Positions 40,879 to 51,139 of a stretch of DNA of 64,000 nt are shown one piece after another (the stretch's first letter is position 1; every line of letters starts with the position of its first letter). The DNA is taken from NCBI RefSeq assembly GCF_016903815.1, contig NZ_CP069973.1. The stretch is one strand, 5' to 3'. The notes under the pieces were generated by a model. The model saw nothing but the letters and a program-made list of their open reading frames with translations. It had not been told where the DNA came from and searched no databases. This stretch comes from Escherichia coli (GTDB taxonomy: Bacteria; Pseudomonadota; Gammaproteobacteria; Enterobacterales; Enterobacteriaceae). Both the position numbers and the translations under genes were made by a program.

Positions 40879-41044
40879 TTATTGTGGTCGGTGACGCTGA
40901 CTCTGGCAGATCTGACCCGTTTTTACATAATCGAGAAATGCGCGTAAGCCGCAGGACATATACTGGCGGTTTGGGTAATACATTTGGAAGCTGTGCTGTA
41001 AGGGCGTTAGAAATAGAGCTCTGAATTATTTATGCAGAGCGGAA

Positions 41045-41080
41045 TAAAAAAGCGGCAACTCAAAAAAGTTGCCGCTTTAC
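41045..41080. terminator. bidirectional terminator between ycaM and pflA
   Basis: aaaaaagcggcaactcaaaaaagttgccgcttta: hairpin with A/T runs on both sides. Confidence 0.6.
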
Positions 41081-41087
41081 GGGGAAA

Positions 41088-41885
41088 TTAGAACATTACC
41101 TTATGACCGTACTGCTCAAGAATGCCTTTCACGCGTTCCATGGTCTCTTTCTTCGGTGGTTTAACACCATCAAGTTTGTATTCTTCACCCATCGCCACCC
41201 ATTTGTGTTTGCCAAGTTCGTGGTAGGGGAGAAGCTCGATTTTCTCAACGTTGCCCATATCACGGGTAAATTCACCGAGGCGATGCGCTGAATCGTCATC
41301 GTCAGACCAGCCTGGGACAACAACGTAGCGGATCCACACCTTCACATTTTTGTTCGCCAGATATTTGGCGAACTCCAGCGTGCGGTGGTTTGAAACTCCA
41401 ACCAGATTTTGGTGGATCTCGTCGTTCATCTGTTTGAGATCGAGCATTACCAGGTCGGTTACTTCCAGCAGTTCATCAATCACCGGATCGTAACGACGAA
41501 CAAAACCGTTGGTGTCCAGACAGGTATGAATGCCTTCTTTTTTGCAGGCGCGGAACCAGTCACGAACAAACTCAGCTTGCAGGATTGCTTCACCGCCGGA
41601 TGCGGTAACGCCGCCGCCGGAAGCGTTCATAAAGTGGCGATAGGTCACCACCTCTTTCATTAAATCTTCAACGGTAACTTCTTTACCGCCATGCGTGTCC
41701 CAGGTGTCGCGGTTATGACAATACAGGCAGCGCATCAGGCAGCCCTGGAAAAAGGTGATAAAGCGAATACCCGGGCCGTCTACGGTTCCACAGGATTCAA
41801 AGGAGTGAATGCGACCAATAACTGACTTGGTAGCCCCCGCCGCAGCGGTATTTTCTGTTGTATTACAATTAGTTAAATTACTCAT
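41088..41885 (-). CDS. pflA: pyruvate formate-lyase activating enzyme (radical SAM); the 5' end is unusual, the canonical [10 protein letters not shown]-terminus is preceded by Lys (AAG) and the only in-frame ATG is 19 codons upstream at 41885
   Basis: Radical-SAM CxxxCxxC ([10 protein letters not shown]) and a PflA match from residue 20 of the ORF; conserved core 41088-41828. Confidence 0.9.
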
Positions 41886-41916
41886 ATCGCTTCAATTGGC
41901 TCTAGTTAACTCTGGT

Positions 41917-42912
41917 TTATGGACGCATTATGGACATTCCTGACACCGGGTTAAGAGTCACAGCATCTTGTAAGAAATCCGGTGCAAAGTGTGCGTAGGT
42001 CATAGTTTGCTGAATGTTAGAATGACCCAGGATGCGCTGCAATGTGATTATGTTACCTCCATTCATTATAAAATGTGTGGCAAATGTATGCCTCAAAACA
42101 TGCACTGCCTGTCCGTCAGGTAAATCGGGTTTTACTTCCCTGAGAGCGTTGCGCACTTTGTAGTAACTGGCATTAAAAAGCCTGCCTGAATTTTTGGTCT
42201 TGATCCGTTTAATCAGGTCCTGCGAAACGGGAATTGTCCTGCGCTTTCCGTTTTTAGTTTTCATAAACGTAACCATCTGGTTAATGATGTGTTCAGCTTT
42301 CAAATTAGACACTTCACTCCAGCGTCCACCAGTAGAAAGGCAGACCAGAGTTGCATTTAACTCATCACCATCAAGCATGGATAACAGCCGCGTAATCTCT
42401 TCACTGGACAAAAAAGCCATTTCCGTAACAGCTTCACGTAACCGCTTAACCTCACGGAACGGGTTGTGAGAGTGATATTCACCGGCGTCAATTAACTTGG
42501 TGAACATCCCGCTCATTATTGCCAGATGCCGATTTACGCTGGCTGGTTTTAGGCCATCGTTCATCATTACAACGCGATAATCAGTTATCGTTTTCTTTGT
42601 TAGCTGGTCCGCCCTGGACACTCCCATCTCGGCAAATTTGGCGATTATTGTCGTCAAACGCCCTCGTTCAATATCTCCACGCTCATGTGATTTTCCGTGA
42701 TATATCCACCATCTGCCTAACAACTCTGTAAGAGTTCGGCGGTCGGCCGGCTTCTCCAACCACTCTTTGTTGTGGTAGTTAACCAGGACATGACGTTCGA
42801 ATGCTTGAGCTTCACCTTTAGTTTTAAATTTCCGCCTGATACGTTTTCCATCTGCACCCTGCGGTCTGACGTCCACTTCATAACGACCATCATCGAGCTT
42901 TTTAATAGACAT
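41917..42912 (-). CDS. int: phage tyrosine integrase (P2-family)
   Basis: 331 aa MSIKKLDDGRYEVDVRPQGADGKRIRRKF; C-terminal catalytic region with HxxR (VLRHTFATH) and terminal Tyr (TMTYAHF). Confidence 0.92.
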   Translation of the reverse strand: MSIKKLDDGRYEVDVRPQGADGKRIRRKFKTKGEAQAFERHVLVNYHNKEWLEKPADRRTLTELLGRWWIYHGKSHERGDIERGRLTTIIAKFAEMGVSRADQLTKKTITDYRVVMMNDGLKPASVNRHLAIMSGMFTKLIDAGEYHSHNPFREVKRLREAVTEMAFLSSEEITRLLSMLDGDELNATLVCLSTGGRWSEVSNLKAEHIINQMVTFMKTKNGKRRTIPVSQDLIKRIKTKNSGRLFNASYYKVRNALREVKPDLPDGQAVHVLRHTFATHFIMNGGNIITLQRILGHSNIQQTMTYAHFAPDFLQDAVTLNPVSGMSIMRP

Positions 42913-43005: not shown

Positions 43006-43317
43006 TCAGCCAGTCTTTTGGTCTGAGTGGTGCAAGGTTGTTGAGTCTTGCCCAATGTGCGCGAGCGCCGGGGCTATTTGTCCGCCAGCGGGATCAGTTT
43101 CATCAAACATGAACCAGTCACGGTACTTGCGAAATCTTTCTGGCTTGAAAAATTTCATACCTGCGTCAAAAGACATCTTTACTTTTCCCTGCTCATATCC
43201 AGCATAGGTGTTGTAGTTAATTCCAGTTAATTCAGCAACTTGCTTCCTTGTCATTCTTTCTGATTCCCGAATAAGTGCGAGTTTCTCTGCTTGAGATGTG
43301 ATTTGTGTATTTGACAT
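43006..43317 (-). CDS. C: P2 C-type immunity repressor
   Basis: 103 aa from MSNTQITSQAEKLALIRESERMTRKQVAELTGINYNTYAGYEQGK; C-terminal ...GQIAPALAHIGQD...SDQKTG resembles P2 C; divergent from cox. Confidence 0.85.
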   Translation of the reverse strand: MSNTQITSQAEKLALIRESERMTRKQVAELTGINYNTYAGYEQGKVKMSFDAGMKFFKPERFRKYRDWFMFDETDPAGGQIAPALAHIGQDSTTLHHSDQKTG

Positions 43318-43421: not shown

Positions 43422-43778
43422 ATGAGTATTGGATCAGAAATGAATAACGATGTTGGAGAAAAAGTATCTGATCTCACAAAAAGTAAAAAATGTGACATCA
43501 AACTTGCAGCCGCACCGTCGGATTTGCTCTCGAAAGAGGGTTTTGCTCTTTACATCGGTAAGACGCCTCGTGCTGTTGCTGAAATGGCGAAAGCAGGCAA
43601 GTTACCAGCCTTTTATATGACGGACCCATTAAAGCCGGGCGGTCATGCTGAGTTATGGATTAATCGTCGTGAGTGGGACAAGTACGCAGCCCAGCTAGTT
43701 GATGAAGCTCCGACAGAATGGCATGACTGGAAAAATCGCATTAGTTACAGCAAATCAAGACATGGCCGTGCGGCTTAA
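43422..43778 (+). CDS. cox: Cox/Apl-like excisionase and early-operon regulator
   Basis: ORF starting MSIGSEMNNDV with a GAGGA RBS; HTH-like region FALYIGKTPRAVAEMAKAGKLPAFY; first gene of the early operon. Confidence 0.7.
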   Translation: MSIGSEMNNDVGEKVSDLTKSKKCDIKLAAAPSDLLSKEGFALYIGKTPRAVAEMAKAGKLPAFYMTDPLKPGGHAELWINRREWDKYAAQLVDEAPTEWHDWKNRISYSKSRHGRAA

Positions 43779-48429: not shown

Positions 48430-48750
48430 ATGTTACACAGAGCCCTTCGTTTAATAAGGCAATACCATAAAGAGTCATTGGTTGATTTATCAACATCTTT
48501 AGGTATTCCAAAAGAAAAAATAGTAGAACTCGAAAGTGGGGTTTGGTCGCCTACAATTGATGTTTTACAGCGTTACGCCTCCCATTTCGATATGCCGGTA
48601 TCTTCTTTAGTATTTTTTTCAGAATCGTTAGGTACGCAGGGGCGTTTATCTAAGCGTTTCCGTTTAAATTTAGCTGGTAAAGTATTAGATGTTATTGAGT
48701 GGGCGAATAAGAAAAATGAAAAGACGAATAAAACTCAAAATTTCCACTAA
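48430..48750 (+). CDS. XRE/Cro-type helix-turn-helix protein, putative partner of the RT
   Basis: 106 aa from MLHRALRLIRQYHKESLVDLSTSLGIPKEKIVELESGVWSPTIDVLQRYASHFDMPVSSLVFF (HTH_XRE-like pattern); GGAG RBS; 3' end overlaps the RT start. Confidence 0.6.
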   Translation: MLHRALRLIRQYHKESLVDLSTSLGIPKEKIVELESGVWSPTIDVLQRYASHFDMPVSSLVFFSESLGTQGRLSKRFRLNLAGKVLDVIEWANKKNEKTNKTQNFH

Positions 48751-49666
48751 AAATAAATCTTACGATATAATTGATTCGCCGTTTTATAAAATGAGAAGTA
48801 AAAGGAAATTGGCTTCTTTATTGGGGGTTGATGTAGGGGATTTATCAACCTTAAAAAAAGATGAAGGCAATTATTCTATTTTTGAACAGTTATCTAAAAA
48901 CGGAAAGCCACGTAAGATACAAAAACCATTAGAAAAATTAGATGTGGTGCATACTCGTATTGCAAGTCTGCTATCGCGAATTACTTTGCCAGATTATCTA
49001 CATTCTGGAAAGAAGGGATGTTCTAATGTTACTAATGCTAAAATCCACCTTAATAATGAAAGGTTGATGACAACCGACATCAGGGCTTTTTTTCCATCAA
49101 CTACCAGAGAAATGATATTTTCATTCTTTTTTTCTGTTATGAAGATGTCATCTGATGTTGCGGATGTATTATCGTATATATGTACTTGCTATGGGCGTTT
49201 GCCTACAGGTAGCAGGATTAGTATGCCTCTTGCATATTTTGCAAATTCCAGAATGTTCGGAGAAATACACCAACTTTGTAATAAACTACACGTAAATATG
49301 TCTGTTTATGTTGATGATCTAACTTTTTCAGGACAAAACGTTAATAGACTATTTTGTTCAGTGATTCGCAAAATAATAAATAAGCATGGTCATGTGATGC
49401 ATGCGGATAAAACAAAAATTTATAGTAGAGAAAAGCCTAAGTTGGTAACAGGTGTTATTGTTTTGGGCGGTTCTTTAAAAGTCAGGAATAAGCAGCATCT
49501 TTTAATGTCTCAAGAAATTGAATATTGGAAAATGATAAAGGATGCAGCGTGTGCAAGAGAAACTCATACTGCCAAAAAGTTATTTGGACGATTGCATTCT
49601 ATGGGGGTAATTGAACAACGTTATAGATCAAAGGTGCTTACATTAAAAGCAAGTACTGCACTTTAA
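48716..49666 (+). CDS. retron-type reverse transcriptase
   Basis: RT motifs visible: DIRAFFPS (motif A), YVDDLTFSG (motif C), retron-typical NAxxH (NAKIH) and VTG (KLVTGVIVLGG); ~316 aa; start codon uncertain (48689, 48716 or 48791). Confidence 0.8.
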   Translation: MKRRIKLKISTKNKSYDIIDSPFYKMRSKRKLASLLGVDVGDLSTLKKDEGNYSIFEQLSKNGKPRKIQKPLEKLDVVHTRIASLLSRITLPDYLHSGKKGCSNVTNAKIHLNNERLMTTDIRAFFPSTTREMIFSFFFSVMKMSSDVADVLSYICTCYGRLPTGSRISMPLAYFANSRMFGEIHQLCNKLHVNMSVYVDDLTFSGQNVNRLFCSVIRKIINKHGHVMHADKTKIYSREKPKLVTGVIVLGGSLKVRNKQHLLMSQEIEYWKMIKDAACARETHTAKKLFGRLHSMGVIEQRYRSKVLTLKASTAL

Positions 49667-49774
49667 TACAGGTTTCTGTAAGTGATTATATTGTTCTTAA
49701 GATACTTACTGATGTTATTTCCCCGTAGCCTTAATTTCTGCGGGGAAGTATGGAGATATTTTGGTTATGGAATG

Positions 49775-51139
49775 CTAATTTTTTAATGTGTATTTTTCTG
49801 TGATTAGTTTCATTGTTCTTTCCAATCCTAAATATACAGTGGCATCAGTAATATTGAGCACGGCAAGTTCTTTTAAAATTTTCTTTTTGTCTCTGATGTT
49901 TATTTTTTCTGTCTTAAAATTGTATGGTGAATTATCTGCCTGATCGTTGGATATCTCAGGAAAAACGGCGTTATTACCGAATAATAAAAAGGCACCGGAT
50001 TGAGATGATATTCTTTCATTATTTATTCTGCTTTTTACAAAAATTATTTTTTCCAAATCCTCTGGATTTATTATGCTTTTAAAATATGGTTTTTCATGCT
50101 TTATGGATTCTAAGAGTTTAAGGCAAGCATGAGAGCTGTTAAAATCATTATTTCTTTCTTCGAAAGAAAGCTTGTCTTTCATGTCTTTTGATAGCATGCA
50201 TAAATTAGATATGCAACTGACAGTGTCGGAATCGAAAAATTTAATGTTCTCTCTGTGTGTTTTAAATATTATTACTTGACCATCGATATCGTTTTTGTCG
50301 GAATTTATACTACTGCATGCAAAATAAAGTGCAATTAATGGATTTGATGTGATGTCAAGTAAGCGAGTAGGTATGCCATAATGTTGCATTCTTACAAGTT
50401 TATCAAGCATTGATGTATCATCAATGAATTCTGAGGGTCTTGCGCTCAATGCTTCTTTAACAAGGTTGATTTCATTATGTAGAAATTTATAGTTCCCATT
50501 TTCATATTTTCTGAAAAGAGATGGTGCAAGTTCATAAGATGAATCTGAATGACCCCTGTAAAAAATCTCCTCATCCATATCTGCTGTTATATGGAGAACT
50601 TTTTCAATAAATTCTTGTAAACTATTTACGGTTAATAATGTGCTATCTTCGTCTGGGAGAGGCGCTGGACTGCTATCCACTTGTGCATTTTGGTTAATAC
50701 CAAATGTCTTAAGGATATCATCTATATTTTTGTCTTTTATGGCCCAGTGTGTTCTTTTAAGGCCATAAGTTCCGAGTTCTAAACTGCTTTCAACACTTTT
50801 GGCGTCTGATATTTTGATTTCATTGTGTGTATGGGTGATTGCAAATTGGAAGTTGATTTCTTTTCCCTTAATGTGAATATTTGAAATTCTTCCAATTCGT
50901 ATGTCGACATAATAAGGTTTTGCTCCCTCTATTTGATAAGCTTCACTCATGAATATTGTTGGGAGTTTTTCAAGATAAGATAGTACATTACTGCTTAATG
51001 GGGATAGTTTTTTACGAATACCATCGGAGGTGTTTTCAAACATTCGTGATAAAAGAAATGAGAATTCTCCATTATTTTGGCTGAATGGTTTCCAGTGGTC
51101 GTAGTGGTCGGGAAAACCACCCATAATTAAATTAATCAT
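49775..51139 (-). CDS. FRG-domain-like protein (C-terminal FRG-type motifs, uncharacterised N-terminal domain); candidate defense gene
   Basis: 454-aa AT-rich ORF convergent with the RT; motifs FYRGHSDSSYELAPSLFR and RMQHYGIPTRLLDITSNPLIALYFA. Confidence 0.6.
   Translation of the reverse strand: MINLIMGGFPDHYDHWKPFSQNNGEFSFLLSRMFENTSDGIRKKLSPLSSNVLSYLEKLPTIFMSEAYQIEGAKPYYVDIRIGRISNIHIKGKEINFQFAITHTHNEIKISDAKSVESSLELGTYGLKRTHWAIKDKNIDDILKTFGINQNAQVDSSPAPLPDEDSTLLTVNSLQEFIEKVLHITADMDEEIFYRGHSDSSYELAPSLFRKYENGNYKFLHNEINLVKEALSARPSEFIDDTSMLDKLVRMQHYGIPTRLLDITSNPLIALYFACSSINSDKNDIDGQVIIFKTHRENIKFFDSDTVSCISNLCMLSKDMKDKLSFEERNNDFNSSHACLKLLESIKHEKPYFKSIINPEDLEKIIFVKSRINNERISSQSGAFLLFGNNAVFPEISNDQADNSPYNFKTEKINIRDKKKILKELAVLNITDATVYLGLERTMKLITEKYTLKN

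Follow-up and report, generated by a model that had tools for sequence, protein, structure and literature searches.

A P2-like prophage integrated at the start of pflA in Escherichia coli may provide the gene with a new 5′ end

What becomes of a gene when a prophage integrates into its very first codons? This question is raised by pflA in a stretch of 64,000 nucleotides of Escherichia coli DNA (contig NZ_CP069973.1 of assembly GCF_016903815.1; hereafter the window), in which the gene directly adjoins a P2-like prophage. PflA activates pyruvate formate-lyase (PFL) and is the only known activator of this main anaerobic pyruvate-cleaving enzyme of enterobacteria. Hence a prophage that removes the promoter, the ribosome-binding site and the start codon of pflA could cripple fermentation in a gut bacterium. 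In this study we show that the junction is a true left attachment site (attL). We consider it likely, taking the proposal as a whole, that the P arm of the phage attachment site (attP) forms the new 5′ end of pflA, that the lysogen makes a PflA of 265 amino acids and that the gene is reached by read-through from the C-int operon of the phage. The phage seems to bring its own start signals, which suggests that lysogeny might cost the host little.

The fused pflA open reading frame (ORF) covers 265 codons on the minus strand (41088..41885). It is found in the ORF list, in the RefSeq pflA of E. coli strain 7/2 and in the match to PDB entry 3C8F. Over a 1001-bp junction query the window matches strain 7/2 at 100% identity, and it is in this strain that the other end of the prophage was read. 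Codons 1-19 of the fused gene come from the phage, codon 20 (AAG) spans the phage arm and the attachment core, and codons 21-265 are native PflA. In the alignments the homology between K-12 and the window ends at the G of the start codon, which is ATG in K-12 and AAG, coding for lysine, in the window (41826..41828, minus strand). Thus CGCA-ATG-TCAGTTATTGGT in K-12 stands against CTACC-AAG-TCAGTTATTGGT in the lysogen or, in a longer reading, GGAGAAACACCGCA-ATG-TCAGTTATTGGTCGCATT against GGGGGCTACC-AAG-TCAGTTATTGGTCGCATT, and the match to prophage-free genomes breaks off at about 41829. Beyond this point lies a segment of the phage P arm (41829..41885, minus strand) that contains a new ATG (41883-41885) and 18 further codons and is identical in the attP of free phages.

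These free phages are the Peduovirus genomes S164, P24A7b and vB_YpM_46, whose attP is located between int and ogr. There the same arm is followed by a core of 13 bp, GTCAGTTATTGGT, and then by phage DNA (GACATTTTTTGA). Aligning the window, K-12 and the three phage genomes places the core of attL at 41814..41826 (minus strand). The opposite junction, attR, can be read in strain 7/2: pflB is followed by a hairpin with a T-run, by GGAGAAACACCGCA-ATG-TCAGTTATTGGT and then by GACATTTTTTGA, at a core-to-core distance from attL of 33,771 bp. The core is identical in attB, attP, attL and attR. Since all four sites align on GTCAGTTATTGGT, the alignments identify attL and attR as the exact reciprocal products of an exchange between attP and attB, and by the same alignments strand exchange must fall within the 13-bp core. 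The bacterial site overlaps codons 1-5 of pflA and is identical to attP over the 13 bp; CAATGTCAGTTATTGGTCGCAT and CCAAGTCAGTTATTGGTGACAT agree at 18 of 22 positions. Mandali et al. in 2010 reportedly defined a minimal attB that is 22 nt long and agrees with attP at 18 positions. An earlier note on this DNA, made from the letters of the window, had proposed a prophage junction at 41821-41920 and the replacement of Met1 of PflA by lysine. Both proposals hold, the first through the arm and core at 41814-41826 that are shared with free phages and the second through the AAG at the place of the K-12 ATG.

Because the exchange takes place at the very start of pflA, integration takes away the native signals of the gene: terminator, upstream region, Shine-Dalgarno (SD) sequence and ATG have been left at attR, where upstream region, SD and ATG now precede a stub of eight codons. 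From which codon, then, can PflA be translated? Reading the window, we found that the frame is closed by a TGA (41892..41894, minus strand) two codons ahead of the ATG at 41885, and that from this ATG to Met51 of the fused gene it offers neither a further ATG nor any GTG or TTG. For these two reasons the ATG at 41885 is, as far as the reading frame tells, the only start able to give a complete enzyme, which agrees with the claim in the earlier note that PflA must gain 19 residues in front of the lysine. The next methionine, residue 51, lies inside the Cys-x3-Cys-x2-Cys cluster motif, whose residues C49, C53 and C56 are invariant in our protein alignment. Residues 21-265 are 100% identical to PDB 3C8F, the chain of which begins SVIGRIHS, and the canonical N-terminus named in the earlier note is therefore right. 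This full-length match to the solved enzyme, including the cysteine motif, identifies the protein as the radical SAM PFL-activating enzyme; in K-12 its gene is annotated at 741 nt.

It might still be argued that translation begins close to the native position, at the AAG (41826-41828) or at the AUU of codon 23, with GGGGG (41834-41838) as SD sequence, in which case PflA would have nearly its usual length and the upstream ATG would be irrelevant. The G-run indeed lies 5 nt before the AAG in the window and 4-7 nt before the ATG that is retained in Rahnella and Serratia. However, bacteria are not known to initiate translation at AAG, and AUU is a rare start codon that here lies 14 nt from the G-run. 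Moreover, all lineages with AAG keep the upstream ATG, which is seen in DNA from E. coli, Salmonella, Citrobacter, Pectobacterium and unidentified contigs and, on protein evidence, in Klebsiella and Dickeya. We therefore regard such a start as quite improbable and infer that the phage ATG is used.

Translation would accordingly begin at 41885 and pass, without leaving the frame, from 19 phage codons to codon 2 of pflA, and the 265-aa product would carry a floppy N-terminal tail on an unchanged catalytic body. Structure prediction gave a pLDDT below 50 and no secondary structure for residues 1-18, and accordingly points to disorder in the extension. A tail of this sort is plausibly tolerated, since the PflA of Providencia seems naturally to carry an N-terminal extension of 16-23 residues. 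In the Providencia proteins P0127, P0256, P0265 and P0271 the annotated extension, which may be native or the scar of another mobile element, is threonine-rich, and there is no methionine at the canonical position.

Could the long form be the original one, with the K-12 start derived from it or the start named in the earlier note simply wrong? When 5426 complete E. coli genomes were searched, 404 (7.4%) had the junction, 376 of these matching a 130-nt junction query at 99% identity or more, and the uninterrupted K-12 arrangement was present in 5021. The combination of AAG and upstream ATG occurs only in the 404 lysogens; the earlier note had asked whether prophage-free strains share it, and they do not. 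In E. coli every case of the extension has the integrase alongside. The extension is also present in the free phage genomes between int and ogr, and the solved E. coli enzyme starts with SVIGRIHS. Apparently native N-terminal extensions do exist in Providencia, but the free phages and the genome counts refute an ancestral extension in E. coli, and we give this idea practically no weight. Two side observations belong to these searches. In a few genomes the junction queries matched at as many as 20 places, and the E. coli plasmid NZ_CP148399.1 (73.7 kb) carries at 2509-2559 a fragment of the pflA 5′ end (52 nt, 98% identical).

The long gene is also present in the databases. RefSeq already annotates a pflA of 798 nt (WP_000067977.1) in strain 7/2, and the exact 265-aa protein is found on at least 1000 contigs. 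If our reading is correct, such entries would be phage-host fusion proteins rather than mis-annotations, and about 7% of E. coli strains may rely on phage promoters to express pflA.

The integration site itself is already known. Table 1 of Nilsson et al. 2011 lists the P2-like coliphages PhiD145 and PhiD160 as integrating at position 950293 of MG1655 and assigns PhiECA29, a prophage of Pectobacterium atrosepticum SCRI1043, to the PhiD145 site (PMC3448106). In the K-12 record, the numbering of which may differ from that of MG1655 by a few bases, pflA occupies 949566-950306 and the core 950292-950304, so 950293 falls inside the core. The integrase of SCRI1043 is 74% identical to that of the window and has a 265-aa pflA next to it. 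The site is hence the published attB of PhiD145 and PhiD160, and the element is a P2-like (Peduovirus) prophage of the PhiD145 integration group, a known kind. It resembles PhiD145, PhiD160 and PhiECA29 in its P2-type integrase, its C/Cox switch, the coordinate of its site and its arm repeats, and in these features we detected no difference. The earlier note had considered the integration unusual. With a published attB, a presence in 7.4% of complete E. coli genomes and occurrences in several other genera, this view has to be given up. What we did not find in the accessible literature is the consequence for the start of PflA, namely that it is supplied by the phage, conserved across genera and kept in remnants, which we regard as modestly interesting. 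The text of Nilsson et al. 2011 makes no mention of pflA, formate or a start codon (PMC3448106), a literature search on pflA with P2-like phages, prophages or sopD2 brought up nothing relevant, and the pro147/P88 paper is silent on where this phage integrates.

How might pflA be transcribed after its own upstream region has been lost? The nearest phage gene encodes the P2-type tyrosine integrase (331 aa; 41917..42912, minus strand; ORF list and annotation), which is co-oriented with pflA and whose stop codon (41917-41919, minus strand) leaves a gap of 31 nt to the pflA ATG. It is 100% identical to the integrases of vB_YpM_46, S164 and other Peduovirus phages, and the Pfam domains Int_N and Phage_integrase are recorded for the integrases of relatives (L097 from Citrobacter, 79%; L099 and L100, 74% each). 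Upstream of int on the same strand lies the gene of a C-type helix-turn-helix (HTH) immunity repressor (43006..43317, minus strand), from which a gene for a Cox-family protein (43422..43778, plus strand) diverges in the manner of the P2-type switch; both are taken from the annotation of strain 7/2, in which 49 features, with int at one end and ogr at the other, make up a complete prophage. Repressor gene, int and pflA thus share one orientation, and the only terminator-like site on this strand, a hairpin with a T-run, comes just past the pflA stop (41049..41078, minus strand). Our terminator scan found no terminator-like site on this strand between the repressor gene and pflA, although a terminator scan also overlooked the hairpin after pflB, which can be recognised on inspection of the sequence. 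Transcription of pflA is probably due to read-through of the C-int operon from the lysogenic promoter, with the repressor gene as presumed beginning of the transcript and pflA as third gene. In P2, according to Yu, Barreiro and Haggard-Ljungquist in 1994, int is said to be transcribed together with C from the lysogenic promoter, on a transcript that crosses attP.

The situation before integration seems to differ from what had been assumed. The earlier note held that pflA is partly expressed by read-through from pflB. In K-12 a hairpin with a T-run stands right after pflB, and for this reason pflB read-through is probably not the main source of native pflA mRNA; Sauter and Sawers in 1990 reportedly described a separate pflA promoter. 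In the lysogen some transcription may also arise from a weak promoter within the last part of int. A promoter-like match, TTAACC-16-CATAAT, which we treat as hypothetical, lies in the 3′ end of int (41927..41954, minus strand), 42 nt upstream of the new ATG. Its -10-like element overlaps one of the arm repeats and reads TATAAT in Rahnella, Pectobacterium and Serratia. The 80 nt around the phage ATG are AU-rich and nearly devoid of structure, with a predicted folding energy of only -2.7 kcal/mol, against -15.3 kcal/mol for the native leader. In the mechanism that we propose, the integrase would recombine attP with the short attB at pflA codons 1-5, and the P arm would become a replacement 5′ end that keeps pflA expressed. 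Excision should restore native pflA.

The arm that would serve this purpose also has to serve recombination. Two direct repeats, TGTCCA (41931-41936) and CGTCCA (41920-41925), overlap the end of int (41920..41936, minus strand) and are, as a sequence match only, complements of the P2-type Int arm-site consensus tgTGGaCa (PMC3448106). The P′ arm, read at attR, holds repeats of the same kind (GTCCACA and GACCACA), so that arm repeats flank the core on both sides. In the window, attL extends over 41814-41936. Within codons 4-7 of the extension lies TAA-N4-TTG (41866..41875, minus strand; CAA-N4-TTA on the other strand), a candidate for an IHF-type (integration host factor) bending site of the P arm. 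The consensus for IHF is WATCAANNNNTTR. The motif is invariant in all eight aligned variants, and its four middle bases vary. Cys7 of the extension as an extra ligand for the iron-sulfur enzyme was an idea that we rejected because the conserved bases form CAA-N4-TTA with a free middle, which fits a DNA site better.

Is the new start more than an accident of one phage? New in our analysis is that the ATG with an open 19-codon frame recurs at the same length in diverged relatives from Klebsiella, Citrobacter, Rahnella, Pectobacterium and Dickeya. Relatives were found by searching with the N-terminus of PflA and with the whole protein and, separately, via the integrase. A homologous open frame was present in ten diverged relatives, nine of them with the same length and one, from Serratia (L100), with its ATG two codons downstream. 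In E. coli and Klebsiella the extension passes into native PflA as [A/T]AGATK-SVIG, whereas Salmonella has MSNLNDCIKKENTAAAAEKK-PIIG and MSNLTNCITNESVAVTADKK-PVIG, Citrobacter MSNLTHCKDKENTAITAPVK-AVIG and Rahnella MSNLTDCISTESTTESGGHM-SVQG. The same extension is carried by PflA proteins of Dickeya and Klebsiella, and further variants occur on unidentified contigs. Two arms were ascertained via the integrase: that of Pectobacterium (MNNSNTCFSTEKPDIAEAVK-SVIG) is open and an exact match in layout, and that of Serratia is open as well, although its first codon is ATA; an ATG follows two codons further on, and the native ATG has been kept. Between the two Salmonella variants, identity is 91% in the sequence ahead of the new ATG and only 75% in the extension.

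The surroundings of the extended gene range from complete to decayed. Citrobacter has an intact cox-C-int-pflA arrangement, and so has Rahnella ecdela, which was found via its integrase (76% identical). A Rahnella-like remnant contig carries pflB, then only residues 269-331 of the integrase, and then pflA with the frame kept. In Salmonella enterica (GCA_010400525.1, contig L103, 5395-7000) the order is ycaO-focA-pflB, a sopD-family gene, a spacer and a pflA of 265 codons that has AAG at the native start position and lacks the native ATG. The sopD-family gene encodes 319 aa on the opposite strand with a GC content of 34%, compared to 51% for pflB, and the 570-nt spacer aligns degenerately with the 3′ end of int. 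This effector gene thus seems to be lodged in what is left of a PhiD145-group prophage. In both remnants the integrase is dead, yet the frame has been kept. The old Met1 codon differs between lineages: most have AAG, Rahnella and Serratia have ATG, and one remnant has GTG. The G-run 4-7 nt upstream of the old start has been kept in E. coli, Rahnella and Serratia. It looks like an older phage-borne SD and ATG were lost in some lineages, which would have left the upstream ATG as sole start.

Conservation of the DNA speaks for our interpretation. Eight aligned variants, 50-75% identical over the 60 nt of the extension, all have the ATG, agree in length and lack stops in frame 0, while frames +1 and +2 contain 1-4 stops each. 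Mean entropy is 1.07 at third codon positions and 0.68 and 0.83 at first and second positions, a contrast that is much weaker than in pflA proper. At the same time a number of findings weigh against our interpretation. In a simulation of substitutions from the consensus, the probability of finding no stop was 0.04 for eight lineages, 0.09 for six and 0.19-0.23 for four, and among shuffled versions of one arm 14-30% happen to have an open 19-codon frame. Most variants were found as annotated long proteins, which biases the sample toward open frames. The constant length might be explained by attP geometry rather than coding, and the conserved Leu4, Thr5 and Cys7 coincide with the invariant CAA-N4-TTA, a pattern expected of an IHF-type site. 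The SD sequence before the phage ATG is weak (purine-rich GAAG), and the promoter scan returned 2 sites where shuffled sequences gave 3.7, no better than chance. Finally, the equation with PhiD145 comes from the coordinate and the cross-link to Pectobacterium and not from a sequence comparison; PhiD145 (AM158280, AM159077, AJ298559) was not among the matches listed in our searches of the phage collection.

Some of these points would suit a less favourable outcome for the host, in which integration silences pflA: normal expression would be lost, the ATG and the 19-codon frame would be by-products of attP, and the resulting lack or near lack of PflA would be tolerated. The chance openness of a single arm, the weak statistics of retention, the overlap of the conserved residues with CAA-N4-TTA and the weak SD are all in line with this. 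Against it stands the junction in 7.4% of complete E. coli genomes with the body of PflA unchanged. The ATG is invariant across the eight DNA variants where neighbouring bases vary, and the ATG and frame persist, with pflA intact, in remnants in which attP function no longer matters. One such case is the Salmonella contig without the native ATG, and most Salmonella serovars form gas from glucose, for which PFL-derived formate and hence active PflA is needed. We thus consider silencing unlikely, though of the alternatives weighed here it deserves the most attention. The best argument for a function of the arm is, in our opinion, not the statistics but the persistence of ATG and frame in decayed remnants next to an intact pflA. 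For the impaired activation of PFL that the earlier note had envisaged we found no support, given the phage start kept in remnants, the unchanged PflA body and the tail predicted to be disordered.

If the arm functions as a gene end, where did it come from? It could be a copy of the pflA 5′ end of an older host that had a natural PflA leader, carried much as phages with tRNA targets carry the 3′ end of their target, and not a sequence that arose within attP. Providencia has apparently native leaders that are T-rich and similar in length, MSAEIITTTDITKTEAPATLGRIHSF being one, and relatives retain an SD and ATG at the native position. Yet we saw no convincing similarity between the phage extension and the Providencia leaders, and the arm holds the arm-type and IHF-type elements that are typical of a P2 attP; such a capture seems to us improbable, marginally more so than a start near the native position. 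A more attractive idea, to which we would give somewhat less than even chances, is that the P arm evolved as a cassette for the 5′ end of pflA, comprising start, leader and the phage lysogeny promoter, and was permanently co-opted in some lineages, so that the Salmonella pflA start and the SopD2-type gene would be phage-derived. If true, the activator of PFL would have been placed under a phage lysogeny promoter. The SopD2-type gene between pflB and pflA in Salmonella would then be surviving cargo of a decayed PhiD145-group prophage, and the pflB-sopD2-pflA arrangement may stem from that prophage.

The reach of the pflA specificity was estimated from the integrases. Those of Yersinia enterocolitica (L101, 2497-3369) and Hafnia paralvei (L102, 2512-3329) are 69-71% identical and were excluded as having a different target site: they lie head-to-tail upstream of a gene for a 213-aa phosphoribosyltransferase (pyrE-like), which is followed by a slmA-like gene. 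Since integrases of 69-71% identity target this pyrE-like site, specificity for pflA would span roughly 73-100% integrase identity. The Yersinia and Hafnia integrases likewise point into the 5′ side of a host gene. In the phage collection there were no integrases between 61% and 99% identity and thus no diverged free attP. A scan of one genome per species gave only 3 loci, and a scan of viral contigs gave 80 near-identical prophages, nearly all of which end at the end of int, so that their junctions are unreadable. A 99% identical fragment of the phage integrase in an assembly of Terrisporobacter mayombei (Clostridia), on a contig of 513 bp with a coverage of 0.84, is most likely a contamination.

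A few further features of the locus may be mentioned. On the far side of pflA, ycaN and ycaK, which in K-12 both lie between ycaM and pflA, are absent from the window at 40879-41087, and at their position strain 7/2 has only a 111-nt pseudogene fragment annotated. Within the prophage, the region between the replication gene and the portal gene (48430-51139) contains an HTH gene, then a gene of the reverse-transcriptase family (48716-49666, plus strand) and one for a protein with an FRG domain (49775-51139, minus strand), and in strain 7/2 a Shedu-family nuclease gene follows further along, past the end of the window. These genes look like the anti-phage cargo of known variable spots in P2.

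How does this arrangement compare to known systems? At pflA, integration within a coding sequence is accompanied by an in-frame substitute end, and this is conserved in relatives. According to Farrugia et al. in 2015, elements with dusA-specific integrases reportedly also integrate at the start of a protein-coding gene and supply it with a substitute 5′ end. The likeness lies in 5′-end integration with a supplied end that keeps the target ORF open. In contrast to the dusA elements, integrase lineage and target gene are different here, and the replacement is not a copy but an unrelated extension of 19 codons, with the native methionine changed to lysine. A second likeness is to e14 and phage 21 (icd) and to the P2-like phages with tRNA or tmRNA targets, namely 186 (ileY), Fels-2 and SopE-phi (both ssrA), in all of which attP carries a surrogate gene end. 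For 186-type phages, the gene end in attP keeps the interrupted tRNA gene functional after integration (PMC3448106). However, these elements replace a 3′ end with a near-identical copy, whereas the prophage at pflA replaces the 5′ end, and with it the signals for translation initiation and probably the promoter, and alters the sequence of the protein. As such it would be a 5′-end counterpart of the familiar 3′-end repair at tRNA genes.

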